IMG/VR virus record: IMGVR_UViG_3300023179_000063
DNA length: 64,000 bases
From: an uncultured virus (IMG/VR IMGVR_UViG_3300023179_000063)
Lineage: Duplodnaviria > Heunggongvirae > Uroviricota > Caudoviricetes > Crassvirales
Reading direction: 5' to 3' (one strand)
The position numbers and the translations under genes were made by a program. Below are positions 4,728 through 60,978 of the stretch, one piece after another. The notes beneath the pieces were generated by a model, which saw nothing but the letters and a program-made list of their open reading frames with translations, had not been told where the DNA came from and did not search any database. The number at the start of each line of letters is the position of its first letter. The first letter of the stretch is position 1.

Positions 4728-4765
4728 TTTGGAAGCTTAAAGGTTTACCAACCTGAAATACATTA

Positions 4766-26441: not shown

Positions 26442-26656
26442 AACATATATCTTTTAAAAACAACCCTTACACTACTATATTAGGATTAATAGTTACTTTA
26501 ATAGGACTATCTTTATTTACACTTCCTTATTTTATAGAGTTACAAGAAAATGTTGAATGGTATCAATCAGCAGGTTGTTTTGCAGTAGGTATTTTGTTAT
26601 TATTAAGTCCTGATACTTTATTAGGAATAATTAAAAAAAGATCAGATAGTATATGA
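26438..26656 (+). CDS. Putative holin (2 TM)
   Basis: NPYTTILG-TM...TM-PD, basic tail, ATGA-coupled to the endolysin. Confidence 0.6.
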   Translation: MKHISFKNNPYTTILGLIVTLIGLSLFTLPYFIELQENVEWYQSAGCFAVGILLLLSPDTLLGIIKKRSDSI

Positions 26657-42119: not shown

Positions 42120-45100
42120 ATGGCTAAAAAAATTAAAACTCCAGTAAAAGAGTTAATAGATTATTATTTATCAAAAGATAATACTAATGAGTATTTAGGA
42201 AAACCAGTTACTGAAGCTCCTATTCCAAGATTAGGAGGACCTCAAGTAGAAGAAAATGAATGGTCTAGATATGATAAAAATTCTTATTTTAATGAAAATT
42301 TAGAAGAAAGAAGAAGTAGAAATCAAGATGGTTGGGATGCTTTTGGAATAGGAGCAGCCAGATTATTAGGACAAGGAATAACTAAAACAGCGGCTGGAGC
42401 AGGAATGGTAGCTGGTTTATTTGGAATTGATAATAGTAATGAAAAATATCTTAATGAAAATTCAAATTTTTCACAAAAAATAGCAGCCTGGATAGCAGGA
42501 GCCGCTGATAATGGATTAGCTGTTGTAGCTAATGAATTAGAAAAAAATTTAATTGATGCTACACCTTTATACAATAGTACAGCAGATAAAGAAGCTAATA
42601 AAGCCAGTATGTTTAATAATTTAACAGATGGTGATTTTTGGGCAGGAGAAGGAGTAGATGCTGCTGCATTTTTATTAAGTGCATATTTAACAGGTGGAGC
42701 TGCAACGGAAGCTAATATTGGAGGCAAAATAGCTTCTACTTTAGCTAAAGGAAAAATATTTGGTTCTAACATAAATAAAATAGCTAAATTAACAAATCAA
42801 GCTACTGCTACTGCTTTACAAACAGCTTCTGAATCTATGTTTGAAGCTAAAGATGTTAGAGATTCATTAAGAGAACAAAAAGCTCAAGAAAAATATAGTC
42901 TTCCTTTTGAAAGTTTAAATCCACAACAACAAAATGAAATTAATGTTGAAGTGGCTCCAGCTGCTGCAAAAACATTTGCTTTAAATACAGCAGCTTTAAT
43001 TGTTCCTAACTTTTTTGAAATGGGTCAATTAATGAAAAAAGCAGGTAGAACTGTAGGTACTGTTGAAGGGTTAGCTGCTAAAGGGTTATCTACTGTTGAA
43101 AAGGAAATAGGTGATAAAGTATTATGGAATACACTTCCTTTAGGTAAAGTAGGTAAAGCTCTTAATAAATTTGCTAATACTAAAATTGGAGCTGGGTTTA
43201 ATAATGCTTTAGTATCTATGGGTAGAGAAGGATTATATGAAGAAAATATTCAAACAGCTATTTCTAATTTAATGGAAAGTGATCCTGATGCTTCTATAAC
43301 AGATATAGGTAAAATAGCAAAAGGAATGTATAATAATTTCAGTTCTGAAGAAGGTAAAAAATCTATGTTATTAGGATCTTTAATAGGAGGTTTAGCAGGA
43401 GGTATATCAGGAGGAATAGAATATTCTAGGAATAAAGAAAGACAAAAAAATGCTATTACAGCAAGTGCTATATCAGGACATAATTTATTTAAAGCTAATA
43501 ATCCTTATGAAATAGAAACTTATGAAGAAATAGTTGATGGTAAACCTGTTAAAAAAACTAGATATAAATTAGATGAAAATGGTCAACCTATTATAGATAG
43601 TGCTAAAATGAAATCTATTATTGCCGATAAAGATCATTTAGAATATTTAGATGACATAGCAACTTTAGCTGAAGAAAAAGGAGATAATGTATTAGCTAAT
43701 ATAGCTAAAAGTCATTCTATGGCTAAATGGGTTAAATCTCATTTTGATACTGGAACAGAAAATTTATTACAAGATAAAATAGATTATTTAAAAGAACTAT
43801 CTGATCAAGAATTATTAGAACAAGGAATAGATCCAAATAAAAAAAACGAATATATAAGTAGATTAGAAAATAAAACTAAAGAATTTACAGCTTTAGCTAA
43901 TCAAATAGGAGGATCTTTATTATCAAGAGATAATAGTAAAGAAGGAGCTAAAAAATTTAATGCTAGAAAATCTGAATTATATAATATTGGAGTTACATTA
44001 TCTTCAGTTAGAGAAGAAAAAGCTAGGCTAGAAGAAGAAAAAGCTAGATTAAGTTCATCTCCTGAATCTACTATTCTTGCTGAAAAACAATTAGCTTATG
44101 CTGATTTAAAAATTAAAGAATTAACTGAAGCTGAAAATAAATTCAATGAAGAATTTAAAAAAATAGCTGATTTTAAAAATGGTCAAGATTATTTTAATAA
44201 TGATTATAAAAAATCTATTGTAGAAAAAATAGATGATATAGACCATGCTACTGTAACTTTAGATGAATTTAATGCTTATGAAAATTCTAAACTATATAAA
44301 TCTGAATTAGGATTAAAAGCAGATAATATAGAATCTGAATTTTTTGAAAAAGGAATAGATGAAAGATTGCAAAATGAACCACTAGAAAACATATTAGATG
44401 ATTTAGAATATTTAGATGCTTCTATTACTCAATCAACTAAAGATAAATTACAATCTATAGAAGAAGCTAAAACTCAAAATTTAGATAGTCTTGAATCTGC
44501 TATTATTGACATACAAAATGGAGAAGAACCTAATGCTCCTCAAGAAATAATAGATGAAGCTAATTCTTTTTTTGATGAAAATGGAGATATTGATTCAGAT
44601 AAATTAGAAGAATTTCAAAATGCTCAAAAAATAAATGCTTCTAATTTAAATAAAATTTCTAATTTACCTATAAAAGAAAAACAAGAAGTTACTAAAAAAA
44701 CAAGTAAAGAAAAAATATTAGAAAAATTTACTAAAACTATTAAAGGAATTACTTTTAATGCTGAAAATAATGATGATTACGATAATGTAAAAGAAATTGA
44801 AACAGCTATAAAAAAATTACAAAATTTTATAAAAGTTCTTAAAGAAAAAAATGATGAGGATTATAGAGATGTTATAACTACTTATGAAAATGATTTAATA
44901 CAATTAGAACAATTATTAATTAAGGTAAAAGAAAGACTTAATGATAAAGCTCTTCAACAAGAAAAATTCGTTCAAGAAAATTTAAATAATATGATTTCTT
45001 CATTTGGAATTAATGAAGAAGGGGCTATTATTAACAAAGAAATATATGATATAATTAAAGATATTTTAGGAGATGAAATTTTAAATCTAAAAGAAAAACT

Positions 45101-48100
45101 TAAAGATTTATCTCTATGGGGTAAAATAGGTTATTTAACTCAATTACAAGATATTGTAAAAAGTAAAATAACTGATGAACAATTAGAACAATTAAAAACT
45201 ATTCAAAAAAGTCTTTCAAATGAAGTTGTTTTTGAAATTAAAGAATATGTAAAAGAAACAGGACAATTATCTGATACACTTATAAATCTTATAACTAAAT
45301 TTTATAGTTCAAATCCTAAATTACTATTTATAGATGTTATAAAATTAATTCAAAAATATTCAGAAGATAAAAATAATCCTTTTAACATTTTTTTTAAAGA
45401 TTTAAACTTTAATAATTTATATAATAAATTACTAACAACTAATGTTGAGGTTAGGGGTTCGTTAGACAAAGCTAAATCTATTTTTAATACACATTATCAA
45501 GTTTTAAATTTATCTAATTTAATTTCTAGTATTGATAGTAAATATAATAGTGTTACAGAAATAGTTACAGAAAATGCTATTAATACTGAAAAAGATATTA
45601 TAACTCCTTCTAATCAACAATTGTTTGCTATTAGAGATTTAGTTAAATTCTTTTTTAGTAAATTAAATAATACTGGATTTGGTAATTTTGCTTATTTAAA
45701 AGGGTATGCTGGTACAGGAAAAACAAACATTGTATTAAAATGGTTTTGTAAATTATCAGGTTTAAAACAAGATGAAATTTTTGCAGTTGGACATAATAAA
45801 TACTCAAGTGAAGCTATTAATAAATCAATAGGTTCTCCTAAAATTAATACAATTGAAAATCTTTTAGAAGGATTAAGTACAAATTCTTTAAATAATATTA
45901 AAGTTCTTATTATAGATGAAATAAATGGATTAAGTAAAAAAGAATTGTTGAATTTAACTAATTTAGTTACTAATTATAATAATTTAAATAAAACATCTAT
46001 TAAAATTATAGGTTTAGGAGATCCTAATCAAATAACAGTTAATGAATCTTTTGCTCCTTTAGAAGAATTATTTGCTACTCCAGAAATGTCTAATATGACA
46101 ATGATAACACCTTTAACTATTCGTTATAGAAGTAATGTTCAAGCTGTTGTAGATGCTCAAGATATTTTTATGGATAATAGTAAAGATATGGTAAAAGAAG
46201 GAATTTACTTATTTACTAATTCAGATAATTCATTAGGTGCATCTGGAAGTATAGCTAGTGATAGTATTGAAAAAATATTAAAAACTAAAGATATAAATGA
46301 TGGTAAAACAAGAGCTGTAATAGTTCATCCATCTGATGTTGAAGAATGGAAAAATAAAAATTTAGGAATAGAAGTAGTTAGCTATGTTGATGTTCAAGGA
46401 AGAACTATTGATGAAGTATATGTAGCAATTAATAATAATAGATTTGATAATTCATTAGCTTTTAATAAAGCTATGTACACAGCAACATCAAGAGCAACAA
46501 ATTTTATATTTATCCAAGGTATTCCTTCTACAGTAGTTGTAGATAATAGTATTAATAATAATGCTCAAAAAAATACTGCTCAATTAGCTGAAGCTAAAAA
46601 AGAATTTGCTCAAAATAGAAAAGATGAAGGAGAACAATTAGATGTAGAAATTAAAATTGTACCTCCGCCTACAACTCCACCTCCCTCAGACCCGGATCCA
46701 GAAAAAGATGAAGAAATTATAGATGATGAAGAAGAGGAAGAAGAGGAAGAAGAACCTGAACCGACAGGTGGTGGATCACCTTTAAATCCAAATTCTATTA
46801 ATTTAAAATACCCTACTAATGAAGCTTTATCAGGTAATGCTTTTGAAAAAATAAAACCTGTTGAAGTTGGAGAAGCTATTGTTTTTATACCTGTTAAAAA
46901 TAAACAAGGATTTTCAAGTATAGGTGTATTTGTAGATAGAGGAAATGGTAAGTTTATTCAAGTAGCTTTATTATCTCAAGAAGAATTAAATAATCCTCCA
47001 GTAGATAAAATAGATATATATAATAAATTTAAAGAAAGTTTAAATAAAAATTATACAGAATTTGTAACTAAAGATGGATATTTAAATGTGGCTCCAGGAA
47101 GTAGTTTAAATATTTTAGCTCAAGGTAAATTAGAAAATGTATCTAAATTAAAATATTACTATAAAAAAATAGGAGAAACATTTGATTGGAAAACTTTATT
47201 TGCTAAATTTAGAGAAGGATTTTTTAATACATCAGAAAGTAATAATTCTAAAATAGAAAAATCTAAAATTAGAGTATTTACAACAGCTGAAATTCGTGCT
47301 TTAAACGGTCCTAAATTAAAACCAGGAGTACCTTATGCTGTTATTACTTCTCCTACTCAACAAGGTGGAGTTGTAAATAACGATCAATATATTGAATTAG
47401 AAAGAAAAAAATTAAATAAAGATACTCATGGATTTATGATAGCTCCTTTATTACAATTTTTAGATAAATATTTTCAATTTAAATCACAATTTCCTGAATT
47501 AACTACTAATGAAATAGCAGATTTAATTGAAGCTAAAGATGATTATTTAGGAACTTTACTATCTAAATTAAATTCTAAATATCAAACTTCATATATTTTT
47601 ACTAATGAACAAAAAGAATTAAAAAAAGAAATTGATGAATTACTATTTAAACCTTTAGAACCATCAGATTTAGAATTTAAAAAGAAGATGAAAGTAAAAA
47701 ATACTGTTTCTCCTTTTATGGTCCTTGATTCAGAAGGTAAACAAAAAGAAATTAACGGTACTATAGTAAAAGTTAACGATAAAACAGTTGAAGTAAAAGT
47801 TGAAGATAAAGTTATAGAAGTTAACAAAGAAGATTTACAACCTGTTATTAAAAGAAAATCAGGTAAAGCACAAAATATATTTAATTTAATTGCTCAAGGA
47901 AATAGAACTTCTAATGGATATATTATTAGAACTACTTATGTTGATAATGGAATACAAAAAAGTAGAGGTAAAAGTCTATTACCAAGAACTGAAGATGAAG
48001 ATCCTAATATTTTATTAGAAAAATTTAATAATTTAGATGTTAAAAAACAATCTAAAATTTTAAATAAATTTAAAGAAAATTATGGTAAAGAATTTAATCC

Positions 48101-51100
48101 TGATAGTTTTACAAAGCAAGACATAGTTAATTTATTAAAATTTGTAAATTATAGTATGAGTTATAATGAACTTTTAAATATATTAAAAATTCAAAATAAT
48201 GGAGATATTAGTGATTTAAAAGTTCCTATACCAATTAATTCTAAAATAGCTGATGGTATATCTACAAAAGAATTTGATTATTCAGAAAATTATATACCTA
48301 CTGATTTAGATAAATTATTATTTGAAGATAGGTTAGAAAAAATTACTCCTACTTCAATATCAGTAAGTATTGATGGAGAAGTTAAATCTAGTAATAATGC
48401 TTCTATTTCTTTTAATGATAATACGGCATCATCTTGGGAAGATGAAGAAGATGATGATGAACCATTAACTAGATTATTACTTAAATCAAATACTTCTAAA
48501 TTAGGTAAAAGATTAAAATCTTTAGATTTATTATCTTATTTACAATCTATTGATAAAACATTAACTGCTGAAGAAATCAAATTTGTTACAGAAGCTGAGT
48601 TATTAAAATTAACTGAAGGCAAAGAAGCTTGGGGATTGTTTAGAGATGGAATTATTTATTTGTCTGAAGATAATTTTGAAGCTTTTGAAAATGTTGGAAG
48701 ACATGAATTATTTCATAGAATTTTTAATATGATGTTAACTCCATCTCAACAAAAACTTGTTTACAATAAAGCTATTGAAGAATTTGGATTACCGTCAGAT
48801 ACTTCTTTAATAGAAATAGAAGAATTGTTAGCTAGAAAATATCAAGAATGGAGGCAAGGTTCTAAAATAAATTCTTTTTTTACTATTTTATTTAATAAAA
48901 TTAAAAAGTTTTTAGGTATGGCTGTAAATATTGTGCCTGATATAAATACTTTTTTTACAAATATTGAACAAGGACAATTTAATGAAGTTATAAATAATGT
49001 TGATGGTACATCACGTTCTTATAATGATATTAGAAAAGATTTTGGTACTGCTATAAATTTTAGAAGGGCTGAACAATATATAATACAAAAATTAAATAGT
49101 TATCAAAATAAATATTATAATGAAGATAATATTAATAAAGGTAAAATACCAGAAAGTCTTGAAAAAACTTTTAGTTTAATTTTTGAACGTATAAATAAAG
49201 ATATAGATAAACTTTTAGCTAAAACTGATTTAACTGTAGAAGAAAAAGAAGATTTAGAATTTTTAAGTATAATTAAAAATCCTAGAATTTATGAAAATTT
49301 AGTAAAGGATTTATTTGAAGGATTTGATCCAAGCATTATTAAAAGAAAAAAATCAATTAATACTTTAACTACAGATAATCAAGAAATTATATCTTCTGAA
49401 AGTTGGGGTAATGAAATAGATGATGGAGAATTAAAAGATCATCAAGCTAAATTAGCTCTTAAAGTAAAACAATTTTTATCTACTATTATAAATAATAAAA
49501 CTAAGAGTCAAGTATCTCCTGGATATGTATATACTGTTTGTTTAAAGTTATTAACTAATATACCTGTAGAAAATAAAGAAAAGTTTTTAAAGATTTTAAA
49601 TGACAGAGTAAAAGAAGATTATTCTGAAAGTAATTCTAATATTAAAGCAATTATAGAAAGAATAGAAAATTTAGCTATTTGGGCTTACATGACTAATTAT
49701 TTAAATAATCCTATTCCAACTACTACAATTTTTGATACTTTTAATAGTTTTAATAATAATGGAGAAATAATTAAAAGAGAAAAAGATGAAACTAATTTTA
49801 ATTTTTTTAGACGAATATCTGATAAATCAGGAATTGATTTAAAAATGTTAAGTGTACTCTACTTAAAATATGATGCTCAACAAAGTTTGATTTCATTGAC
49901 TGTTCAAACAGGAAGTTTATATGAACAAAATGTTTTTTTTGGAGAAAATGGTTATTCTGATGGAGAATATTTTCAAGCTTTTAAAAATGCTGTAAGAGAT
50001 AATGAAGTAGTTAATTCTAAAAATAATATTATATCGGCCTTATCTAAAATATTAGTTTCAACTGATGTACCTAAATTAATTAAAGATATTAATAAAATTA
50101 AAAAAGGAATTGAAGAAGAACAAAGAAATTTTATTATTGATAATTTACAAAGTACTTTTAATATTTTACTAAGTTCTGAAGTTAAATTAGATGCTAAAAA
50201 TACCTTAGAAGATATGTTAATAGTATTAAATCATTGGAATACTGTTAAAGTTAATGATAAAGCTGAATACTTTGAAAGAGAAGCTTTAGATCATATTTCA
50301 GGAGCTGTTACAAGATTAGCTAAATTAGAATTAACAGGAGAAACATCTTACAGAGCAGGTTCATATAGAAGAACTGATGGTAAAACAGCTTATTTACATA
50401 CTTTATCTAGTAATGCTATAAATATTTTACAATCATTTATAAATGAAAAATTATTTCCTAAAAATAGTTTATATCTTAATAATCCAATATATAAATTAAA
50501 TGTTTTTCAAACAGGTATTAATAAAATTTATAATTATGTAAATTTTGACGGTGTTGTTGATAAAGATAGAAACAAAGAAGCTATTAGATATAAAAGTGAA
50601 ACTGAAAAAGATTGGTTAGATAGAAACTTTAAATATTTTTTCTTATCTCATAATAAACAAACAAATGGAAAATATGTTCAACAATTTTTAACTATATCAA
50701 ATAAACCAAATATTGTAGGAGCTGAAATAAACTTTTTAGATTGGAATAAAATACAGGAATCTATTGAAACTATTTTAAAACAACAATCTTTAAGAAACTT
50801 TAAAGGAGTTAAATATAGACAAAATTTAAATGTTTTCGATTCAATACTTAAAAGAGATAGTAAATTATCTGATACTCAATATGCTTCAGAAATTATAAAA
50901 GCTATTAAAGGAAAAAATTTAAAATCATTAATTAGTACAGAAAACTATATAGCATTATCAAATTTAAATAGTGCTATAAAAAAATATAGTGATAAAAATA
51001 TTGGAATGATGGCTGAAACTAATTCTGTAGAAGAATTAAAAGATATAGCTACAAATGAATTATTGGCTCTATATTATGCTAACTTTTTTGTTAATTCTAA

Positions 51101-54100
51101 TCAATTAAATCAATTAGTAGCTGGAGATGAAAGTTTCTATAAAAATTCATTTGATGTCATTAAACGTATGTCTATAGTTTTTGCTAATGGATACAAAGGA
51201 TTTGTAGAAAACAGTTTTGGTTTACCTAAAGAATATAGAACTCTTGTAGCTAAAGATGTAGAAGGAATGTTAGGAGAAGACTATGTTAAATTTTTAAAAA
51301 TACATGGTGCTAAATATGATTTAACAGATGCACAAGGTTATATGACTCCTAAAAGAGCTGCTCAAATAAGAAAAGCTTATGGAGAATCTTTAAAACTAGG
51401 TAATGTATTAAAACCAGTACATTTTGAAATTGATGAAAATGGAATACCTAGAGCTGTAAAATATTCTTCTATAGAATTAACCGATGAACTATGTAAAATG
51501 TTTCCTAGATTAGCTCAAGTAAGAAAAATGTTAGAAGATAACAATATAGATGAAATGGTTTTTAAATCTGCTGTTAAAGTAGGATTACCTTTAGAATTAA
51601 CTGTTCCAAATGATGATGGAAGTTTACCAGAAATTAATCCTAATAGTATTTTAACTTTACAAAATAGTAGTTATAGAATACAGTCTAATCCTGAACATAA
51701 TGTAGATGAAGATGAAATTGCATATCCTACTCAATTAGGATATTTTGCTAATTTTAGTGGGGCTAATACTGAAGTTGCTAATAAAATGTTTGATGCTATG
51801 ACTAAATTAATGAATAATGGTTTATACGAATTATTAGGTAAATTAGGATTGAGAAAAAGATTTTTAGATGATGAAAGTATTAAATTAACTTTAGAAAGAG
51901 CTAGAAATTCTGTTAGAAAATTTTTAGTTAAAAAAGAAGTTGATAAACAATCAGAAAGACAAAATGCTTTTTTAAATAATCCTAAACTTGGTATCAATAC
52001 TCCATTTTTAGTTAAAAAAGCTATTACAGAATTAGCTGCTGGTTTTACTAAAGCTACTGTAGGAATTAAACTTCCTGGTTCTGGATTAGTATTACAATCT
52101 GCTTATGGTACAGCTACTTATATAAATGCTGAAGGAAAAGAAGTTACTTCAGAATTAAAATGGAGAGATAAAGATGGATGTGCAGAAGTAGTATTACCAG
52201 ATATGTGGAAAGGTAAATTTAAAATAGGAGATAGTATTTTATTTGATACAATGGTAGGATTCCGTATTCCAGCTACTGAACTACACTCAGCAGTTCCTTT
52301 AAAAGTAGTAGGTTTTTATCCTAATAATAAAAATGTAATTATTGCTCCTGCTCAAATTGTTTATTTCCACGGTTCCGATTATGACGTAGATAAATTATAT
52401 GTTATGAGGAGAGAAATTTCTAATAATACTGTTAAATTATCTGATGGAACTATATTACATAAAGAAGGAGATGTAGTAGGTTATAAAGGAAATGAAAAAA
52501 ATGAAAATTTTGAACAGGATTTAGTACAATTATTAGCTGAAACTCAAATTAAATTAGTTGAAGCTAAATTAAAAAAAGATTCTAATTTAAAAACTCTTAT
52601 TTCTGTTTATAAATCTTTAATTGAATTACAAAATCTTTATTATAAAAATGTAATAGTAGATTCTTTTTTTAGTATTACTACAAATAAAGTAAATGAAGAA
52701 TTAATGATGTCACCTATTTCAATGGAAAGATTTAAAGGAATGGGTAAAGAAAATGAAACAGCTTTTGATTTAGTAGCAAGATTAAATGGTTTTAATTTAA
52801 AAAAACCTAAAAGAAGTGATTTTGATACAAATGAACAATTTGAAATAGAACAAGATAAATGGATTGATGAAAGAAATAAAGTAATTTTTAAAGAAAGAAA
52901 TTTATATGATTTAGAAGATCAAATGTTAATGCACAAAGATAATTTTAGTGGTACTAAACTTACTGGTTCATTTGCAAATATGGCTAAAACTATTGCTTAT
53001 TTCTTTCAATCTACAACAGATAATAAATATCCTATATTAAAAAAAGAAAATCATATTACTATAAATGGTAAAACTTATGAAGGATTAGATTATTATGAAA
53101 ATAGTGAACCTATAATTGTTAATTATGATAAAGACGGAAATCCAGTTTATTCTAAACCTATTATAACAGAAACAATAGATTCGTTAGTAAATGCTGCTAT
53201 TGATAATGTTAAAGAACAAATACTTTCTAGTATTGGATTTACTAATAATACAGGTAGTATAGCTATCTCATTAATTTCTATGGGTATTCCTTTAAATGAT
53301 GTTGTTAGAATAATGGTTTCTCCAGCTGCTAAAAGTATAAATACTGCTAATGGATTTAAAAAAGGATATGATTTAACTTTATCACAAATAAATGATAAAT
53401 TAGCTACATTATTAAATTTTAAAGATTATTCAGAATTATCAGAAGAAACTAAAACTAATCTACTAAAAGAAGTTGAAAAAATTGATATTACATCTGATAT
53501 GTTAGAAAAGAATATTAATAAAAATATTCAAGAAATGAATAAACAAGAACTTTTAGAACAAAAAGCAATTTTATTAAAAATAATATCTAAAGGAGATGAT
53601 ATAGCTTCTAGTTTAGGAGATGGAGTAACAGCATTTGGAGTATTAAAAGGATTTGATATAACATTACATGGTATGCAAAATGTTTTAGATAGTTTTGATA
53701 ATATGTGGGATGATCAAACTAATACTAAAAATTCTAAATTTATATTTGAAAATGTTAATCCTATAAAACTTCCTCATATTAATAAAGCTTTTTATATTTT
53801 AAAAACATTAAAATCTAATATAGAACGATTATTTTTTGTAGAAAATAAAGCATTACAAAAACTATCTTTTAGTGTATTAGGAACTTCAGGAGTAAAAATA
53901 TGGGATAGAATAGAAGGAGAAACTGCTTTAAAAATAAGAGAAAATTTCATACATTATTTTATGACAGGTCTAAAATACACTACCCCAGAAGGATATGAAA
54001 TCAGTCATGATATGACTAATGAAGAAATGTATGAAATTGCTGGAAAAGAATATATAGGAAATGAAGCTTGGAATAAAAGATTTGTTGATCAAGTATTAAA

Positions 54101-55040
54101 ATTAAAATTAGAAAATCCTTCCAATTTATTTTTAAAGAAACTATCTGTTAATAAATATGGTCAATTAGTATTTCCTTCATTAAAAAATGTAAAACAAGCT
54201 GATATTTTAGCTTATCAAAGTGACTTTGAAAAATTAGCTGTTAATGGGGTATTTACTGAATTACAATATAATTTTGTTAAATATGCTGTATTAAATCAAG
54301 GACTTTCATTTGGAGCTTCTAACTTTTCATTAATTTTGCCTGATAAAATTTATGAGCCTTTAATGGAAGAGTTTAATAGGTCTTTAACTGAATTAACAGC
54401 AAATTCTGATAGTTTTGAAAAGAAATTATCTCAAGTATTATCTAATTTTACTGTACAATATTTATTAAACAATGGAGATAGGATATTAACTAAAGTAAAA
54501 TTCCAAGACACGACACCAGGCCTTAATGGTAATATTTTTGTTCCTAAAGATGCTTTAAAAGAACCTGTATTATATTTAAAAGTAGGTACTAAAATGTATT
54601 ATAATGTAGGAGAAGAAGCTACTAACTGGAAATATGCTGAAATAGGTTATTTTTCAAGATATACTCAATATCAATTTAAAGATAAATTATTTGAAGAAAA
54701 CTATAGTTTAAATAAAGCTTTTGATTCTTCAGTTGTAACATTAAAAGTTAAAAATAATAAGCCTAAAAACAATATCTTTGAAAATTCAAATGAATATGTT
54801 AAAGGTCAAAAAATAAGACTTGTTAATTATTCTGATATATCAAGATTAAATATGATAGAATATACTATAGATGAGGTTACTAAAAAAGGAGATAAATATT
54901 CATATAAATTAGTTAATTCTCAAGAAGTTAGTACTATTTTAACTGATTCTGAAATTATCGAATCTAAAGAATTTAAACAATTAGTTGCAGATGGTATGAT
55001 ACCTGAAGTAGCATTACAAAAAATTAAAAATAAATGTTAA
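42120..55040 (+). CDS. Giant virion RNA polymerase polyprotein (membrane-like N-terminus, SF1 helicase, zincin, two-barrel RNAP)
   Basis: 4306 aa; catalytic GSDYDVDKL (52371-52397), GFRIP, LTDAQGY; helicase GYAGTGKT / IIDE / GDPNQ / YRS / VQGRT / YTATSRA; HELFH zincin. Confidence 0.9.
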   Translation: MAKKIKTPVKELIDYYLSKDNTNEYLGKPVTEAPIPRLGGPQVEENEWSRYDKNSYFNENLEERRSRNQDGWDAFGIGAARLLGQGITKTAAGAGMVAGLFGIDNSNEKYLNENSNFSQKIAAWIAGAADNGLAVVANELEKNLIDATPLYNSTADKEANKASMFNNLTDGDFWAGEGVDAAAFLLSAYLTGGAATEANIGGKIASTLAKGKIFGSNINKIAKLTNQATATALQTASESMFEAKDVRDSLREQKAQEKYSLPFESLNPQQQNEINVEVAPAAAKTFALNTAALIVPNFFEMGQLMKKAGRTVGTVEGLAAKGLSTVEKEIGDKVLWNTLPLGKVGKALNKFANTKIGAGFNNALVSMGREGLYEENIQTAISNLMESDPDASITDIGKIAKGMYNNFSSEEGKKSMLLGSLIGGLAGGISGGIEYSRNKERQKNAITASAISGHNLFKANNPYEIETYEEIVDGKPVKKTRYKLDENGQPIIDSAKMKSIIADKDHLEYLDDIATLAEEKGDNVLANIAKSHSMAKWVKSHFDTGTENLLQDKIDYLKELSDQELLEQGIDPNKKNEYISRLENKTKEFTALANQIGGSLLSRDNSKEGAKKFNARKSELYNIGVTLSSVREEKARLEEEKARLSSSPESTILAEKQLAYADLKIKELTEAENKFNEEFKKIADFKNGQDYFNNDYKKSIVEKIDDIDHATVTLDEFNAYENSKLYKSELGLKADNIESEFFEKGIDERLQNEPLENILDDLEYLDASITQSTKDKLQSIEEAKTQNLDSLESAIIDIQNGEEPNAPQEIIDEANSFFDENGDIDSDKLEEFQNAQKINASNLNKISNLPIKEKQEVTKKTSKEKILEKFTKTIKGITFNAENNDDYDNVKEIETAIKKLQNFIKVLKEKNDEDYRDVITTYENDLIQLEQLLIKVKERLNDKALQQEKFVQENLNNMISSFGINEEGAIINKEIYDIIKDILGDEILNLKEKLKDLSLWGKIGYLTQLQDIVKSKITDEQLEQLKTIQKSLSNEVVFEIKEYVKETGQLSDTLINLITKFYSSNPKLLFIDVIKLIQKYSEDKNNPFNIFFKDLNFNNLYNKLLTTNVEVRGSLDKAKSIFNTHYQVLNLSNLISSIDSKYNSVTEIVTENAINTEKDIITPSNQQLFAIRDLVKFFFSKLNNTGFGNFAYLKGYAGTGKTNIVLKWFCKLSGLKQDEIFAVGHNKYSSEAINKSIGSPKINTIENLLEGLSTNSLNNIKVLIIDEINGLSKKELLNLTNLVTNYNNLNKTSIKIIGLGDPNQITVNESFAPLEELFATPEMSNMTMITPLTIRYRSNVQAVVDAQDIFMDNSKDMVKEGIYLFTNSDNSLGASGSIASDSIEKILKTKDINDGKTRAVIVHPSDVEEWKNKNLGIEVVSYVDVQGRTIDEVYVAINNNRFDNSLAFNKAMYTATSRATNFIFIQGIPSTVVVDNSINNNAQKNTAQLAEAKKEFAQNRKDEGEQLDVEIKIVPPPTTPPPSDPDPEKDEEIIDDEEEEEEEEEPEPTGGGSPLNPNSINLKYPTNEALSGNAFEKIKPVEVGEAIVFIPVKNKQGFSSIGVFVDRGNGKFIQVALLSQEELNNPPVDKIDIYNKFKESLNKNYTEFVTKDGYLNVAPGSSLNILAQGKLENVSKLKYYYKKIGETFDWKTLFAKFREGFFNTSESNNSKIEKSKIRVFTTAEIRALNGPKLKPGVPYAVITSPTQQGGVVNNDQYIELERKKLNKDTHGFMIAPLLQFLDKYFQFKSQFPELTTNEIADLIEAKDDYLGTLLSKLNSKYQTSYIFTNEQKELKKEIDELLFKPLEPSDLEFKKKMKVKNTVSPFMVLDSEGKQKEINGTIVKVNDKTVEVKVEDKVIEVNKEDLQPVIKRKSGKAQNIFNLIAQGNRTSNGYIIRTTYVDNGIQKSRGKSLLPRTEDEDPNILLEKFNNLDVKKQSKILNKFKENYGKEFNPDSFTKQDIVNLLKFVNYSMSYNELLNILKIQNNGDISDLKVPIPINSKIADGISTKEFDYSENYIPTDLDKLLFEDRLEKITPTSISVSIDGEVKSSNNASISFNDNTASSWEDEEDDDEPLTRLLLKSNTSKLGKRLKSLDLLSYLQSIDKTLTAEEIKFVTEAELLKLTEGKEAWGLFRDGIIYLSEDNFEAFENVGRHELFHRIFNMMLTPSQQKLVYNKAIEEFGLPSDTSLIEIEELLARKYQEWRQGSKINSFFTILFNKIKKFLGMAVNIVPDINTFFTNIEQGQFNEVINNVDGTSRSYNDIRKDFGTAINFRRAEQYIIQKLNSYQNKYYNEDNINKGKIPESLEKTFSLIFERINKDIDKLLAKTDLTVEEKEDLEFLSIIKNPRIYENLVKDLFEGFDPSIIKRKKSINTLTTDNQEIISSESWGNEIDDGELKDHQAKLALKVKQFLSTIINNKTKSQVSPGYVYTVCLKLLTNIPVENKEKFLKILNDRVKEDYSESNSNIKAIIERIENLAIWAYMTNYLNNPIPTTTIFDTFNSFNNNGEIIKREKDETNFNFFRRISDKSGIDLKMLSVLYLKYDAQQSLISLTVQTGSLYEQNVFFGENGYSDGEYFQAFKNAVRDNEVVNSKNNIISALSKILVSTDVPKLIKDINKIKKGIEEEQRNFIIDNLQSTFNILLSSEVKLDAKNTLEDMLIVLNHWNTVKVNDKAEYFEREALDHISGAVTRLAKLELTGETSYRAGSYRRTDGKTAYLHTLSSNAINILQSFINEKLFPKNSLYLNNPIYKLNVFQTGINKIYNYVNFDGVVDKDRNKEAIRYKSETEKDWLDRNFKYFFLSHNKQTNGKYVQQFLTISNKPNIVGAEINFLDWNKIQESIETILKQQSLRNFKGVKYRQNLNVFDSILKRDSKLSDTQYASEIIKAIKGKNLKSLISTENYIALSNLNSAIKKYSDKNIGMMAETNSVEELKDIATNELLALYYANFFVNSNQLNQLVAGDESFYKNSFDVIKRMSIVFANGYKGFVENSFGLPKEYRTLVAKDVEGMLGEDYVKFLKIHGAKYDLTDAQGYMTPKRAAQIRKAYGESLKLGNVLKPVHFEIDENGIPRAVKYSSIELTDELCKMFPRLAQVRKMLEDNNIDEMVFKSAVKVGLPLELTVPNDDGSLPEINPNSILTLQNSSYRIQSNPEHNVDEDEIAYPTQLGYFANFSGANTEVANKMFDAMTKLMNNGLYELLGKLGLRKRFLDDESIKLTLERARNSVRKFLVKKEVDKQSERQNAFLNNPKLGINTPFLVKKAITELAAGFTKATVGIKLPGSGLVLQSAYGTATYINAEGKEVTSELKWRDKDGCAEVVLPDMWKGKFKIGDSILFDTMVGFRIPATELHSAVPLKVVGFYPNNKNVIIAPAQIVYFHGSDYDVDKLYVMRREISNNTVKLSDGTILHKEGDVVGYKGNEKNENFEQDLVQLLAETQIKLVEAKLKKDSNLKTLISVYKSLIELQNLYYKNVIVDSFFSITTNKVNEELMMSPISMERFKGMGKENETAFDLVARLNGFNLKKPKRSDFDTNEQFEIEQDKWIDERNKVIFKERNLYDLEDQMLMHKDNFSGTKLTGSFANMAKTIAYFFQSTTDNKYPILKKENHITINGKTYEGLDYYENSEPIIVNYDKDGNPVYSKPIITETIDSLVNAAIDNVKEQILSSIGFTNNTGSIAISLISMGIPLNDVVRIMVSPAAKSINTANGFKKGYDLTLSQINDKLATLLNFKDYSELSEETKTNLLKEVEKIDITSDMLEKNINKNIQEMNKQELLEQKAILLKIISKGDDIASSLGDGVTAFGVLKGFDITLHGMQNVLDSFDNMWDDQTNTKNSKFIFENVNPIKLPHINKAFYILKTLKSNIERLFFVENKALQKLSFSVLGTSGVKIWDRIEGETALKIRENFIHYFMTGLKYTTPEGYEISHDMTNEEMYEIAGKEYIGNEAWNKRFVDQVLKLKLENPSNLFLKKLSVNKYGQLVFPSLKNVKQADILAYQSDFEKLAVNGVFTELQYNFVKYAVLNQGLSFGASNFSLILPDKIYEPLMEEFNRSLTELTANSDSFEKKLSQVLSNFTVQYLLNNGDRILTKVKFQDTTPGLNGNIFVPKDALKEPVLYLKVGTKMYYNVGEEATNWKYAEIGYFSRYTQYQFKDKLFEENYSLNKAFDSSVVTLKVKNNKPKNNIFENSNEYVKGQKIRLVNYSDISRLNMIEYTIDEVTKKGDKYSYKLVNSQEVSTILTDSEIIESKEFKQLVADGMIPEVALQKIKNKC

Positions 55041-55041
55041 T

Positions 55042-58000
55042 ATGAGCTTTTGTCCTAATAAATCATCTTCACAATATAAAGCATTAGTTTCTCAATTAGG
55101 GGAAATTGATGCTTATAATGCTTGGTATTTAAAAAATAAAGCATTATTATCTGATACTCCTATGCCTGTTAAACCAGGAGTAGAAGAACTATTTGATTCT
55201 AATCAAGAGCTTGCTAATCAAGTATATGAAGCTTTAGGAATAATTGTACCAACTAATGTAAAAGTTAAAGGTAAAGTTTTGTATGCTGGTAAAGAGTATC
55301 CTAATACTTTTCAAATTACATTTCAGAATAATGATAATAAATATATAGGATTTGCTAAAATAAACAATCAAAACATTGATTCTATAGAATTACAACCTGA
55401 ATTTAGAAAACAAGGATTAGGTACAGAAATTTATGTATTATTAGGAGAAGAACTTGCTAAAAATAATATTACTCTTGAGTCAGCTTATTATACAGGTTCT
55501 CAACTAACTCAACAAGCTAAGGCTACTTGGGAATCATTAGTTAAAAAAGGATACGCAATAAAAACAGAAAACAATTACAAATTTGTAAGTAAAGCACAAC
55601 AAAAACAACAAGCTCAACAACTATACTCTCGATATCTTGATACAACACAAAATCAATTTATATCTTCAAATGATAAAGTAGTATTTGGTCACCCTACTAT
55701 TGGTAAAAGTTTCTTAAAGAAACAAGGAGAAGATAAATTTATTTCTTTAGATGATGATTATGCTACAGAAATAAATAATAAAGTAAAAGAGATAGCTGAT
55801 AAATATAATGTAACAGCTTATCAAGTTAAAGATGGTGGTACTCAAAAATGGAATAATGAGTATAATCAAATGATGCAAGAAATGTTTAATGTTGCAAAAC
55901 AAAAAGCTATTTCTGAAAACAAAACTTTATTTACTTCTAACACTAACCTGTTAAAAAACAACGCAGATTCTTTTGATAAAGTTATAAATCTTACAAATGT
56001 AGAATTTGAAAAAAGAATACAAGAAAGAGGAGCCAAATATGATATTAAAGAATGGAAATCTCAAATTAATGAAGCTATTTCTAAAATACCTACAAGTAAA
56101 GTAATAAATACTGATAAGTATCTTTCTGATTTATTTATAACACCACAACAAAAACAACAAGCTCTACAACTATACTCTCAATACTTAGATACTGTATTTC
56201 CTAATAGTAAAGTAAAGGATATTGTTTATCATGGTAGTAATCAAAAAATAAATCAATTTGAAGTTAGAAAAGAACCTTTAATACATTTTGGTTCTAAAAA
56301 TGCAGCTTTACAAAGAGGTGATGTACTAAATCAAGTTATTCTTAATATCAAAGATTTACAAACTATTAAAGATGGTATGTGGTTTTTAGGTACAGATGAA
56401 GGAGGACTACTTAAAGAATTACTTGATAGAAATATTTTAACTATTGAAGAAGTAAAAAGTATCAATAAAACTAAAAATGAAGCTATTCAACAATCTCCAT
56501 ATTTTCATGAAAATTATAGAATGGCTATACCCGAAGGAGAAAAAGCAGGTAATAAAAAGCTTCAAGAAATATTAGGGGGTAAAGATATTGGATTTGAATA
56601 TAAAAATTTTAGTGAAGATACAGGTAGTACAAGTTATGCAGTACCAAGTCAAGAACAAATTCACATACTTGGTAGTAAACAAGATATAGAAGGATTTAAA
56701 GAGTTTGTTAAAAAATCTAATGAACCAATTATACCTTCAATTGAAGAAGCTAATAATTTATTACAAAACAAACCAATGTTTAGTATTGCTGATCCAAATA
56801 TTAAATACGAACAAGAATATAAACTTTTATTAAAACAATATCCTAATTTATTAGATTCTAATTATTCTCCTAGTATAATTAAAAAACTAATTACACAAAT
56901 TAATAATGCTTTTACTACATTAGTTGCAACAGCTACTCAATCTATTGAATCAGGTGGATTATTTGATAAGATTAAAATTTCTAAAAAAATAGAAAGTCCT
57001 AAAATTGTAAATGAATATTTAATAGAAAGACTTCAAAAAATGTTTCCTAAAACAAAAGTTAAACTATTGTCAATAGAAGAAGCTTATAATTTAATAGGAG
57101 AAGATGCTTATAATGCAAATAGTTTTATTTTAAAAGATACAGTTTATATTTTAAGAGATAAAATAAATAATGAAACTATTATTGAAGAATTTTTACATCC
57201 TTTTGTAGAATATTTATTTCAAAATAATAATGATTTATATTTAAATCTTGAAAAAGAAGCAATGCTAGATGAAACTTTAAAAAAATCTATTAGTAGTAGA
57301 TATTCTAAATTTAGTGTAGTTGATAAAAAGAAAGAAATGGTTACACAAAAGTTAGCCGAATTATTAAATGAAGAATTTAAAAACAAACCTAAAAATATTA
57401 ATGAATTAAGACAGTTACTTCAAACTATTTATAAGGAATTGTCAAATTTTTTTTACAGGGTGTTTGGAGGAAAAAACTATATAGATTTTAATAATTTATC
57501 TACTACAATGTCTTTAGATACTTTAGTACAAATTATGAATACAGAAGATGTTGTTCTTCCTGTAGAGTATATCAATAGACCTACATATAGCATTATTGAT
57601 GATATTAAAAATCAAGTACATAAAGAAGGATTTAAATTAAAAGATGATAAATATGTTGATATAAATGGTAATACTTATGAAAGATTAACTGAATGGGTAA
57701 GAAATACTTTTAGTAAAAATAAAGGAAAAACAACTTTAACTTTTGCTACTTATAAAGCTAATGCTATATTTAAAAAAGAAACAAAAACAATAGTTAATGG
57801 AGTTGAAACAATTAAATTACCTAATGGAGTAGATATTTCTTTAGAAGATTTAATTGTTATGATTGTCAGAGAAATGGAAACGGCTAAAATTTATGGTACA
57901 TTAGCTCATAAAATGATGGATATATGTATTAAAAATTTAATGGGAATTAATACAGATATTTTAAGAAATGAATTAAAAACATTAGCTGCTGGTGGAACTG

Positions 58001-60978
58001 ATTATGACCCTATTGATTTAGATAAATTTGATTGGATTGAAGTAAATATTGAAAGAATTTTAGCTAAATCAGGAATTATTATTAAAGATGATAGATTAGA
58101 TAGTAAACAATTAGATAAAATAGAATCTGAATTACCTTACATTTTAAAAGAATTAGGTATTGGAACAACTATAGATGGGTTGTTAGAACATAATGATGGT
58201 TATTTATCTATTAGAGATTGGAAAACTGGTAGGATTTTAAACGATCAAATGACATCAGATGTAATGCTTTACGGTAATCAATCTGAAATAATAAGAGATA
58301 GTAAATTAGATAGAGCTAAATTAGAAGTTGTATTAAGAGCATTAATGATTAAATATCAAAATCCTACAGCTAAATTTAGACAATTATCTATAGAATATCT
58401 TAATAGAAATACTTTAGTTGAAACAATGAATATTGATTTAGATATTTATTTAGCTCAATTACATGATTATTTTAGAGAAAATGACCCTAAATTATTTGAA
58501 GATTTTAAAAATAAAGGATTATTTGATAAAAGAAATTATGGTATTAAAATAGTAGAAAATGATGAAAAAACTTCTGAAACTAAAGAAGAACAATTAAAAG
58601 CTTTAAATGATTCTATAGCTATTTTAAAAAATCAAGCAGATGTAGAAAAAGACCCTTATCTTAGAAGTCAATATAGAAATCAATTAGCTAAATTAAGTAA
58701 AGAAAGATTAGATTTAGAACAAATTATTCCTCATTCTTTAGATAGTATTGATTCTCAAGTCGGTAAATGGAAAAAATGGACTGGAGATTTAAAGTCTGTT
58801 TCTCAACCTATTATACAATCTTTTAGTAGATTACTCAATAAAAATACTTATGATTATAACATGGAAGTAAAAGCTTTACATCGTGAATTTGATGTATTGC
58901 AAAAAAAATTAATGGATGAACATGGAGTAAATTTTAAAAATACATTATTAAAATACAAAACTAAAGATAATAGTGGATTATATGATTTTATGTGGGTTTT
59001 AAAAGATAAATCAACTGTTAAAGGTTATTTTAAAGTTACACCAGATGATAAAGCAGAATGGGCTAAATTAACTGATACTCAAAAAGAATATATTAATTTT
59101 TTTACTAAAAATATTGAAGAATTATATAATGAAGTTGGTAGTAAAGTAGTATATAAAGATATTCATGGTTATAAAAAAACTAATTTTGATATAGCTAAAA
59201 TTCCTAAAAAATTAGAATCTGATTTTATGCCTAGAACTTTTATGGATTTAGGAGATTTTATAGAAGTAAATGGAGTAAATAAATCAACAGCTATATTTGA
59301 ATGGAATCAATATAAAAGACAATTTTTTAAAAGTGAATTTTATGCTAACAATTCATTTGAAGCAATGCCATTTAAAAATATGGGATCAGATGCTATTATA
59401 GGAGGACAAATGCACTCTTTTAATGCTGAATTAGCTTTTAAATCTTTTACTCAAAATTTAATTAAAAAGAAACATTTAGATGAAGTTCATAATATTGGAG
59501 TAGGATTAACTAATTATTTTAGAAATGAAAATCAAGAAGAAAATGCTGAATTTTTAGAAAGTAGAATACTGATAGAAATTTTAGATGCTAAATTAAAAAC
59601 TAAATTAAGTAAAAAAGTATTTTCTTATGTATCTAAAAAAACAAATAGACTTATTGAAGTAGATTCAGATGCTATTTTTGATACATTAAGAAATGCTGTT
59701 ACAGCTGGAACTATGTGGTTAAAACCTGGGGCCGCTGCTAAAAATGCAGTTTTATTACTTATTACAAATCATAAAAAAGGATTATTAGGATCAATTAGTA
59801 AAAAATTTGGAGTTAATCCTGACGATATAGATTTTAGTGAAAAAGATTTACTAGAAGCTGAATTAGAATGGGCTAAAATGCAAAAAGATAGACTTACAAA
59901 AACTCCTAATAAATTAGATTTATTATTAAAAGAATTTAATTATTTACCTGAATATTATGATTTTGCTGCTCATAAATCACAAATGATGTCAGAAAGAAAT
60001 AAATTACTTAATCAAGATCATTTATATTTATTACATTCATTTTTTGAAGATTGGGGAACAACTTCAATTTTAACAGCTATGTTAATACATCAAAAAAATA
60101 AAAAGACTGGAAAAAGTATTTTAGATAGCTATGAAGTAGAAGATGGTAAAGCTGTTTGGAAAGGTGGTATAAGAGGTAAAAGACAAGATGGAACAGTAAT
60201 AGAAGGAATAACTTATGAAGAAATGAGCAAATATAAAAAAATAGGAGCTACTTTAACAGGTAACTATCGTAAATCAGAAAGAGGAGCAATAGAATTATAT
60301 GCTTTAGGAAGAGTAGTTATGCAGTTTAAAAGATTTGTTCCTCAACAATTATATAATTTATTACAATCAAAACAAGAATTAGATTCTTATGGTAAATTTA
60401 TTGAGCTTACTGATGAAAATGGAAATGTACAACTAAGTAAAGATGGAGAAACTATTTATTCTTGGAAACCTGATGTAGTAGAAGGACGTTATAGAGTAAT
60501 GTTAAAATTTTTATTAAATGCAGTACATATATTAAATAATCCTTCTTATAATTTTAAAAACCTTTCTTCAAGACAAAAACAAGAAGTTATAAGTACTTTT
60601 ATGATGGTTATACAAATGGCTTTAACTGCTGCTACTTATGCTGTTTTATTTGACGATGATGAAGAAGAAACGTATTTAGCTAAAACTTATTTAAGACTTA
60701 CTAATGATTTATCAGATGGTATGTATCCAACAGATATGTTAAATAACTTTTTATCAACATCTTTACCTAAAAAAGCTTATGATGTTGCTAAAGCTTCTTC
60801 AGAATTTTTATTTGGTATTACTACTGGAGAAAGAACTCAAAAAGGTTATGTTAGAGGAGAATTACAATTGTCTAAAAATTTACCTATTTTTTCTTCTATT
60901 TATGAAATAGATAAAATTAATGATAATATTAAAAATGGTAAAGCTTTTGGATTAACAGGATACCAAGACGAAGAATAA
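55042..60978 (+). CDS. Giant virion cargo protein 3, polyvalent (GNAT, P-loop, ART-like, metallopeptidase-like, PD-(D/E)XK)
   Basis: 1978 aa; EFRKQGLG, GHPTIGKS, IVYHGS...IHFG, IIEEFLHPF, YGTLAH...IDGLL...DWKTG; C-terminal GRVVMQFKRF...EGRYR. Confidence 0.75.
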   Translation: MSFCPNKSSSQYKALVSQLGEIDAYNAWYLKNKALLSDTPMPVKPGVEELFDSNQELANQVYEALGIIVPTNVKVKGKVLYAGKEYPNTFQITFQNNDNKYIGFAKINNQNIDSIELQPEFRKQGLGTEIYVLLGEELAKNNITLESAYYTGSQLTQQAKATWESLVKKGYAIKTENNYKFVSKAQQKQQAQQLYSRYLDTTQNQFISSNDKVVFGHPTIGKSFLKKQGEDKFISLDDDYATEINNKVKEIADKYNVTAYQVKDGGTQKWNNEYNQMMQEMFNVAKQKAISENKTLFTSNTNLLKNNADSFDKVINLTNVEFEKRIQERGAKYDIKEWKSQINEAISKIPTSKVINTDKYLSDLFITPQQKQQALQLYSQYLDTVFPNSKVKDIVYHGSNQKINQFEVRKEPLIHFGSKNAALQRGDVLNQVILNIKDLQTIKDGMWFLGTDEGGLLKELLDRNILTIEEVKSINKTKNEAIQQSPYFHENYRMAIPEGEKAGNKKLQEILGGKDIGFEYKNFSEDTGSTSYAVPSQEQIHILGSKQDIEGFKEFVKKSNEPIIPSIEEANNLLQNKPMFSIADPNIKYEQEYKLLLKQYPNLLDSNYSPSIIKKLITQINNAFTTLVATATQSIESGGLFDKIKISKKIESPKIVNEYLIERLQKMFPKTKVKLLSIEEAYNLIGEDAYNANSFILKDTVYILRDKINNETIIEEFLHPFVEYLFQNNNDLYLNLEKEAMLDETLKKSISSRYSKFSVVDKKKEMVTQKLAELLNEEFKNKPKNINELRQLLQTIYKELSNFFYRVFGGKNYIDFNNLSTTMSLDTLVQIMNTEDVVLPVEYINRPTYSIIDDIKNQVHKEGFKLKDDKYVDINGNTYERLTEWVRNTFSKNKGKTTLTFATYKANAIFKKETKTIVNGVETIKLPNGVDISLEDLIVMIVREMETAKIYGTLAHKMMDICIKNLMGINTDILRNELKTLAAGGTDYDPIDLDKFDWIEVNIERILAKSGIIIKDDRLDSKQLDKIESELPYILKELGIGTTIDGLLEHNDGYLSIRDWKTGRILNDQMTSDVMLYGNQSEIIRDSKLDRAKLEVVLRALMIKYQNPTAKFRQLSIEYLNRNTLVETMNIDLDIYLAQLHDYFRENDPKLFEDFKNKGLFDKRNYGIKIVENDEKTSETKEEQLKALNDSIAILKNQADVEKDPYLRSQYRNQLAKLSKERLDLEQIIPHSLDSIDSQVGKWKKWTGDLKSVSQPIIQSFSRLLNKNTYDYNMEVKALHREFDVLQKKLMDEHGVNFKNTLLKYKTKDNSGLYDFMWVLKDKSTVKGYFKVTPDDKAEWAKLTDTQKEYINFFTKNIEELYNEVGSKVVYKDIHGYKKTNFDIAKIPKKLESDFMPRTFMDLGDFIEVNGVNKSTAIFEWNQYKRQFFKSEFYANNSFEAMPFKNMGSDAIIGGQMHSFNAELAFKSFTQNLIKKKHLDEVHNIGVGLTNYFRNENQEENAEFLESRILIEILDAKLKTKLSKKVFSYVSKKTNRLIEVDSDAIFDTLRNAVTAGTMWLKPGAAAKNAVLLLITNHKKGLLGSISKKFGVNPDDIDFSEKDLLEAELEWAKMQKDRLTKTPNKLDLLLKEFNYLPEYYDFAAHKSQMMSERNKLLNQDHLYLLHSFFEDWGTTSILTAMLIHQKNKKTGKSILDSYEVEDGKAVWKGGIRGKRQDGTVIEGITYEEMSKYKKIGATLTGNYRKSERGAIELYALGRVVMQFKRFVPQQLYNLLQSKQELDSYGKFIELTDENGNVQLSKDGETIYSWKPDVVEGRYRVMLKFLLNAVHILNNPSYNFKNLSSRQKQEVISTFMMVIQMALTAATYAVLFDDDEEETYLAKTYLRLTNDLSDGMYPTDMLNNFLSTSLPKKAYDVAKASSEFLFGITTGERTQKGYVRGELQLSKNLPIFSSIYEIDKINDNIKNGKAFGLTGYQDEE
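55597..56192 (+). repeat. Pair of 47-bp in-frame direct repeats (55597-55643 and 56146-56192)
   Basis: caacaaaaacaacaagctc(a/t)acaactatactctc(g/a)ata...gatac, 42/47 identical, 549 bp apart; encode QQKQQA(Q/L)QLYS(R/Q)YLDT. Confidence 0.9.

Follow-up and report, generated by a model that had tools for sequence, protein, structure and literature searches.

How the virion RNA polymerase (RNAP) of a crAss-like phage obtains its template inside the cell is the question raised by a 64,000-nucleotide stretch of DNA from an uncultured virus placed in Crassvirales (IMG/VR record IMGVR_UViG_3300023179_000063; hereafter the window, meaning the whole stretch analysed), in which one uninterrupted open reading frame (ORF) of 4,306 amino acids (aa) encodes a superfamily 1 (SF1) helicase and, downstream of it, an RNAP region. 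In Cellulophaga phage phi14:2 the virion RNAP is gp66, which according to the available text of Drobysheva et al., bioRxiv 10.1101/2020.03.07.982082 transcribes single-stranded DNA (ssDNA) or denatured DNA well and double-stranded DNA (dsDNA) poorly, in agreement with the activity on ssDNA stated in the original prediction made from this sequence; QDE-1, a two-barrel RNAP related to gp66, is described there as needing a helicase and RPA for making RNA from ssDNA. The giant ORF and its helicase are laid out as follows.

42120..55040, + strand: uninterrupted giant ORF (P0001, 4,306 aa), a putative fused virion cargo protein
45597..46544, + strand: compact SF1 helicase core (aa ~1160-1475), two RecA-like domains with motifs Q and I-VI in order
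45606-45620, + strand: Q motif PSNQQ (aa 1163)
45702-45725, + strand: Walker A GYAGTGKT (aa 1195)
45909-45920, + strand: Walker B IIDE (aa 1264)
46017-46031, + strand: motif III GDPNQ (aa 1300)
46122-46133, + strand: motif IV RYRS (aa 1335)
46392-46418, + strand: motif V VQGRTIDEV (aa 1425)
46476-46496, + strand: motif VI YTATSRA (aa 1453)

The original prediction had read an ordered set of SF1 motifs in the RNAP-bearing ORF, and each of them is present exactly where it had been placed, in the order Q, I, II, III, IV, V, VI, with 20 invariant columns in A1, an alignment and profile of 17 relatives of the domain. The domain was compared in 58 sequences, the window protein and 57 long relatives, some of which share no more than 28-30% identity with it. 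Each of the catalytic residues of motifs Q-VI (Q1167, A1197-G1198, G1200-K1201, D1266-E1267, G1300-D-P-x-Q1304, R1337, Q1426-G-x-T1429, Y1453 and S1457-R1458) is present in 56-58 of them; near-invariance at such distances points to an enzyme maintained by selection rather than to a relic. Two Pfam families match above their cut-offs, AAA_30 (E 1.6e-7, 31.7 bits) and Viral_helicase1 (E 4.9e-5, 23.7 bits); a single-sequence phmmer search of the PDB returned no match at E<=1, and the A1 profile matches solved helicases of the Pif1 and Dda types (9kwf, E 2.6e-10; Candida Pif1, 1.6e-7). Structure prediction, which had been proposed as a check, gave a confident AlphaFold2 model of aa 1140-1480 (pLDDT 88.2, pTM 0.84) with both RecA-like domains of SF1 enzymes, 1A and 2A, and the motifs along the cleft, and with this model Foldseek retrieves Upf1, T4 Dda, RecD2, RecD and Pif1, all at probability 1.00, T4 Dda being the best structural match. 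There is little doubt that the domain is an SF1 helicase.

The RecD/Dda-like label originally given to it stands insofar as the nearest folds are those of SF1B enzymes, but not as regards membership. According to the available text of PMC4824106, BsPif1, RecD2 and Dda have a 1B pin and, within 2A between motifs IV and V, an SH3-like 2B domain, which in BsPif1 (aa 251-354, ~104 aa) is needed for unwinding; neither pin nor 2B domain is found in the present model, in which the 89 aa from motif IV to motif V hold only the beta-alpha units of 2A, as assigned by DSSP. The distance from Walker A to motif VI is 256 aa, and 254-300 aa in 51/58 relatives where the three patterns were located. Since there is no room for a 2B domain of ~100 aa, the domain is filed, on the model, as a compact SF1 clade nearest SF1B and not as a member of the Dda, RecD or Pif1 groups; compared with T4 Dda, D. 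radiodurans RecD2 and Pif1 (PDB 3UPU, 3GPL, 7OTJ, 5FHD), the window core is ~100 residues shorter and sits within a 4,306-aa chain. A defence link was also considered; PADLOC gave only a weak AbiO match (E 3.6e-7), and the link was not adopted because the match is restricted to the generic P-loop half.

The chain in which this helicase is found runs from a phi14:2 gp67-like N-terminus through the helicase and an HExxH motif to a gp66-like RNA polymerase, and its remaining parts are the following.

42264..44222, + strand: gp67-like N-terminus (aa 49-701), matching phi14:2 gp67 aa 52-675 by BLASTP
46548..46799, + strand: long helix (aa ~1477-1510), then a disordered acidic Pro/Glu linker (aa ~1510-1560), from model 2 and composition
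46797..47399, + strand: conserved beta-rich domain that follows the linker (aa ~1560-1760), from model 2 and alignment A2
48702..48716, + strand: HELFH, a zincin-type HExxH motif (aa 2195-2199), the strict pattern occurring in 41/58 relatives
50991..52406, + strand: gp66-like RNAP region (aa 2958-3429), matching phi14:2 gp66 aa 838-1370 by BLASTP (E 3e-14)

The N-terminal part aligns with the N-terminal third of gp67, a virion structural protein, at 25% identity over 697 columns (E 8e-24, BLASTP). The alignment with gp66 (545 columns) ends at the catalytic DYDVD (aa 3420, 52377-52391), which is paired there with DFDID 1361-1365 of gp66; the motif of crAss virion RNAPs is given as DxDxD with Ile or Val at position 4 (bioRxiv 10.1101/2020.03.07.982082, available text), and DYDVD, with its Val at this position and in a region homologous to gp66, fits the rule. 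The C-terminal 1,506 aa match annotated crAss RNA polymerases (tblastn, best E 8e-12). The Pro/Glu linker reported after the helicase was recovered as described, its tract starting at 46662 and aa 1510-1560 containing 14 E and 12 P among 51 residues; in model 2 (aa 1140-1760, 621 residues; pLDDT 78, pTM 0.58) a helix at model residues 338-371 leads into residues 371-415, where pLDDT is 30-34, and strands at 447-479 (pLDDT ~70-88) belong to the beta-rich domain, which has conserved columns in A2 but no Pfam match and no usable ESM Atlas match (aa 1560-1859). The HELFH region likewise has no Pfam match, Pfam searches of aa 1-1,139, aa 1481-2094 and aa 2095-2394 gave nothing above cut-off, and a PHROGs scan of the whole giant protein gave 0 families; HExxH lies between helicase and DxDxD in every relative where all three were located.

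The original prediction further placed Gly/Ala-rich hydrophobic helices directly before the helicase and spoke of a membrane-anchored machine. Such segments do exist, but in the gp67-like region (aa ~76-433, e.g. aa 415-433), ~700 residues upstream of the helicase. The usual hydropathy threshold for a transmembrane segment is 1.6; the 19-residue Kyte-Doolittle maxima of these segments are only 1.26 and 1.43, and no 19-residue span in the N-terminal third of the giant protein reaches 1.6. Transmembrane anchoring was rejected on these values, and the membrane-anchored part of the proposal finds no hydropathy support.

Whether the joining of helicase and RNAP is real can be judged from its distribution. 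Searched against proteins of 2,368-7,536 aa, the helicase region has 57 matches, and the order helicase, HExxH, DxDxD holds in every row where the patterns were located. Among 1.84 billion representatives, each standing for a cluster at 50% identity, the A1 profile finds 6,220 at E<=1e-3, 504 at <=1e-10 and 241 at <=1e-30; in the best 150 of these matches, DxDxD is in the same chain in 69 and absent from the chain in 81, mostly proteins shorter than 3,600 aa, and representatives of at least 5,500 aa carry helicase and DxDxD in one chain in 22 cases out of 22. In IMG/VR, a scan with the single domain gave 7 pattern matches, none of which was confirmed, and a scan with A1 gave 28 loci, with helicase and DxDxD in one ORF at 19; at two others (L026 and L030) a helicase ORF of 2,783-2,832 aa is followed ~5 kb downstream by DxDxD in another ORF, and the remaining 7 are cut short or unresolved. 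The survey of RNAP genes suggested in the original prediction was made on proteins of 2,368-7,536 aa, shorter stand-alone polymerases being uncounted: among the 120 top-ranking long relatives of this region, 106 have an A1-type helicase, which lies upstream of DxDxD in 104/104 of those in which both were located, and the other 14 start with the RNAP part; in this lineage the helicase is thus nearly universal. One RNAP-first relative (P0191, 2,496 aa) is named a hypothetical protein of Chitinophaga caeni and lies on a 5.28-Mb contig, which suggests a crAss-like element integrated into, or co-assembled with, a Bacteroidota chromosome.

Because the fusion recurs in the 57 long proteins of other assemblies, at the 19 IMG/VR loci and in the 106 relatives of the RNAP region, it is, on comparative grounds, genuine and not an assembly artefact. 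The partner that stays constant is, however, another one than the original prediction supposed. It had described an RNAP fused to a helicase, and the two do share one frame; yet the split forms keep the helicase with the gp67-like/HExxH module, and since proteins of 2,500-2,900 aa, such as P0027 and P0032, end ~125 residues past HExxH, gp67-like module, helicase and HExxH form the stable unit, to which the polymerase is variably fused. A search for shorter proteins gave 13 matches, most of them fragments or split forms with 1,000-2,350 aa, and thus no clear stand-alone helicase family; in 50,697 phage records, tblastn found no match to aa 961-1627 at E 1e-5. To judge from these comparisons, the helicase is a conserved and selected part of the gp67-like protein of this lineage.

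The best-known relatives lack such a domain or carry another one. In phi14:2 the block gp67-gp66-gp65 follows the tail genes in the same order, and gp67 and gp66 are homologous to the window chain, but the three are separate genes, against one chain plus a downstream ORF in the window, and HExxH is found in gp65, downstream of the RNAP, instead of upstream of it. The available text of bioRxiv 10.1101/2020.03.07.982082 states that some phages fuse the three phi14:2-type proteins into one polyprotein, probably cleaved. Two Suoliviridae proteins, cr118_1 gp14 (YP_010110531.1, 4,946 aa, named 'exonuclease V') and cr50_1 gp059 (YP_010110216.1, 4,774 aa, named 'DNA helicase'), resemble the window chain in having HExxH, DFDID and an SF1 helicase with intact Walker A on one chain; their helicase, however, lies at the extreme C-terminus (aa ~4250-4910), after HExxH and DFDID, whereas that of the window is upstream of the RNAP. 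The Suoliviridae domain is Dda-like (T4 dda, E 4e-12), has matches in 1,369 of the 50,697 phage records, in which the window helicase has none, and shares 27% identity over 145 residues with the window helicase. In a maximum-likelihood tree of 21 rows (14 of the 17 A1 sequences, 3 being left out, and 7 others) a branch supported by 100/100 has the window type on one side and, on the other, the helicases of Suoliviridae together with stand-alone Dda-like ones. This makes two separate captures likely, though not proven, the tree being unrooted and its branches long; as the Suoliviridae RNAP chain carries a second, unrelated type, the pairing of a helicase with cargo or RNAP has probably arisen more than once.

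Among the possibilities that the original prediction had set against itself were an assembly artefact and a fusion already described as common with another function; the first does not apply, whereas helicase-RNAP joins are indeed common (RefSeq Suoliviridae; Yutin 2021 supplement). An SF1 helicase is drawn in the Zeta transcription block in Supplementary Figure 13 of Yutin 2021, going by the text of that figure, so that an SF1 helicase among crAss RNAP-block genes is already in print; in the available main text of that paper, helicases occur only in the list of abbreviations for conserved genes and in the replication block. No characterised helicase in crAss RNAP or cargo proteins was found in the literature searched, Yutin 2018 and Drobysheva 2021 (Nature) lying outside it, in accordance with the original statement that no characterised example was known; the word 'helicase' is absent from the available text of Bayfield 2023 and from the 2023 Crassvirales review.

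Three further features of the window are the following.

29885..34621, + strand: Crassvirus muzzle protein gene (Pfam crAss_MUZ, E 1.4e-23), marking the upstream tail/cargo block
55035..55037, + strand: C-terminal Cys codon, the last residue of the giant ORF, whose 4,306 aa include only 5 Cys
55042..60978, + strand: downstream 1,978-aa ORF, placed like phi14:2 gp65, with a PD-(D/E)XK-like D...DxK motif

The giant chain is probably packaged in the virion and injected, because it lies downstream of the muzzle gene and is homologous to phi14:2 virion proteins detected by mass spectrometry. Among relatives of the window protein longer than 2,300 aa, 84/139 have a Cys among their four C-terminal residues; in phi14:2 the final residue of gp67 and the second-to-last one of gp66 are Cys (L003). 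The split helicase-HExxH proteins are Cys-terminated too, but chains ending with a gp65-like/PD-(D/E)XK part are not, and the terminal Cys could mark the ends of modules as a signal for packaging, tethering or processing. In the downstream ORF the PD-(D/E)XK-like motif spans aa 1039-1063 (58156-58230), with a Pfam PDDEXK_1 match (E 3.6e-4, 21 bits) slightly below the cut-off of 22; in relatives of at least 5,500 aa a PD-(D/E)XK part (PF12705) is fused into the helicase-RNAP chain.

The reading put forward here, which can be held only tentatively, is that the SF1 motor of an injected cargo assists early transcription on the entering genome; it is suggested by the preference of gp66 for ssDNA, by the parallel with QDE-1 and QDE-3 and by the repeated joining of helicases to the cargo set. 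In Neurospora RNA interference, too, a gp66-related RNAP relies on a helicase, the RecQ protein QDE-3, and on an ssDNA-binding protein, RPA, but these are separate proteins of a eukaryotic silencing pathway, with a helicase of another superfamily, whereas the window has a single chain. According to the available part of Bayfield 2023, cargo proteins are ejected and then refold. The giant chain, or fragments cut from it, would be ejected ahead of or together with the DNA of the phage and would refold inside the cell, where the ATP-driven helicase would expose single-stranded template on the entering genome, or clear bound proteins from it, so that the co-injected polymerase could start early transcription, perhaps with participation of the neighbouring PD-(D/E)XK-like cargo protein. 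The sequence shows an intact and conserved ATP-binding motor core in a protein with virion-packed homologues; that this protein is packaged, ejected and refolded and acts on the incoming genome we infer, and the feeding of template by the helicase, as originally proposed, we can likewise only infer. The functional link between helicase and polymerase is nevertheless a reasonable idea, precisely because gp66 transcribes ssDNA well and dsDNA poorly.

Several observations weigh against this reading. SF1B enzymes travel on ssDNA, and the entering genome is duplex. In the split relatives helicase and RNAP are on different polypeptides, and the chain may be cleaved by its HExxH region. Motifs IV and V are just 89 residues apart, and the model has neither pin nor SH3-like 2B domain; unless a wedge is provided by neighbouring parts, the core may thus be a translocase that does not unwind. 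No membrane span is predicted in the N-terminal third. In addition, phi14:2 gp67, gp66 and gp65 and the three cargo proteins of the crAss001-like phage cr128_1 have no Pfam helicase, the sole P-loop-like pattern among them being a lone GAMIPGKS close to the C-terminal end of cr128_1 gp52; since these phages' cargo proteins are without it, the polymerase family needs no helicase in cis. A more ambitious form of the transcription reading, which must be called doubtful, sees the injected cargo of this large branch of uncultured crAss-like phages as a self-sufficient start-up machine, in which a conserved compact SF1 motor, a protease-like module, a two-barrel RNAP and a PD-(D/E)XK nuclease would be combined in one or two giant chains, and the motor, with or without the nuclease, would turn the leading duplex end into ssDNA template.

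In another explanation, unlikely in our view, the helicase, together with the PD-(D/E)XK-like cargo protein, would be an injected helicase-nuclease serving host takeover or counter-defence by degrading or remodelling host DNA, stripping DNA-bound proteins or resecting the end of the phage genome. The PD-(D/E)XK-like motif in the next ORF, the fusion of the same domain in relatives of at least 5,500 aa, the joining of helicase and DxDxD in all 22 representatives of that size and the weak similarity to AbiO are consistent with it; the nuclease match of the window, however, stays under the Pfam cut-off (21 against 22 bits), no similarity to known anti-defence proteins was found, and the AbiO match covers just the generic P-loop half.

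A genome-entry motor, held at the envelope by the gp67-like N-terminus within an ejectosome and pulling the genome in, would correspond to the 'pulls incoming DNA' half of the original prediction. It would suit the constant pairing of the helicase with the gp67-like module instead of the RNAP, the conserved Gly-rich hydrophobic segments that this module has in common with phi14:2 gp67, and the DNA-ejectosome built from the ejection proteins of N4-like phages (PMC13434306, available text). Such a motor is nonetheless quite improbable: the hydropathy maxima are below the usual threshold, SF1 cores follow single strands and not duplex DNA, and phi14:2 and crAss001-type phages enter without any such domain. 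T4 Dda is a replication and recombination helicase, and both its place as best structural match and the grouping of the Suoliviridae C-terminal helicase with stand-alone phage Dda-like helicases would fit an early replication or recombination helper, unrelated to transcription and joined to the cargo merely for packaging. This, too, is decidedly unlikely, as the window-type domain finds no counterpart by tblastn in the 50,697 phage records, nearly all the relatives listed are, or are parts of, giant cargo proteins, unlike the pattern of a replication gene, and the helicase stands within the structural/cargo block and not in the replication block. A degenerate or merely structural ATPase-like module, or an artefact of assembly or annotation, is hardly credible, and is refuted as far as sequence allows, for against the missing PHROG and single-sequence PDB matches stand catalytic residues near-invariant in 58 sequences, a confident fold and an architecture recurring on many independent contigs.

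As to the phage itself, the window (G+C ~25-30%) encodes crAss-type virion proteins: the large terminase subunit (TerL), portal and major capsid protein match PHROGs (E 2e-124, 2.7e-127 and 7.2e-76, respectively), and Pfam CrAss_Ring_1 (3.4e-41), Ring_2 (1.2e-27) and Ring_3_4 (1.9e-6) are found in upstream ORFs. TerL shares ~35-38% identity with classified Crassvirales among the 15 matches listed, and less than 60% with all 159 matching records; on account of this low identity the virus is, by its sequence, a distant crAss-like phage. The A1 profile, searched against genome contigs, gave one locus, on a 96-kb contig of a Bacteroidetes metagenome-assembled genome, which is too little for naming a host. 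A tRNA scan of the window found none.

Some other genes of the window may be recorded here. An ORF like GIY-YIG homing endonucleases (14750-15562; Pfam GIY-YIG, E 4.5e-6; PHROG 5123) directly follows the portal gene, with whose end it shares 17 bases. Within the tail gene block, a Peptidase_M15_3 ORF (26653-27063, E 1.4e-15) is likely an endolysin or cell-wall hydrolase; between muzzle and cargo genes, a 128-aa ORF (34621-35007) matching DUF5856 (E 3.2e-16) and phrog_858 overlaps the muzzle gene stop by one base. A 3'-5' exonuclease-type protein (phrog_403; DNA_pol_B_exo2) is encoded at 8407-9240 (+ strand), separately from a family A DNA polymerase at 62158-63765 (- strand), on the opposite strand at the other end of the window; the sign of the GC skew flips near 6 kb and near 61 kb, in agreement with the switch in gene strand.

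The fusion of helicase and RNAP is real and conserved in the lineage, and is akin to the known crAss cargo/RNAP polyproteins with accessory domains; the mechanism originally proposed for it is a plausible hypothesis. For reference genomes this means a correction of annotation, in that RNAP-bearing cargo proteins of 4,700-4,950 aa are labelled there just 'DNA helicase' or 'exonuclease V'. The helicase core, with ~320 residues, is small enough to be expressed alone. As to how a crAss virion polymerase obtains its template in the cell, the conserved helicase is a concrete candidate for the missing activity, and the second, unrelated helicase on the Suoliviridae polymerase chain is another candidate for supplying template. 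If the cargo were indeed a start-up machine, it would explain how crAss virion polymerases of this lineage start on dsDNA, and the Suoliviridae, with their independently captured Dda-like helicase, would have arrived convergently at an answer to the same problem.

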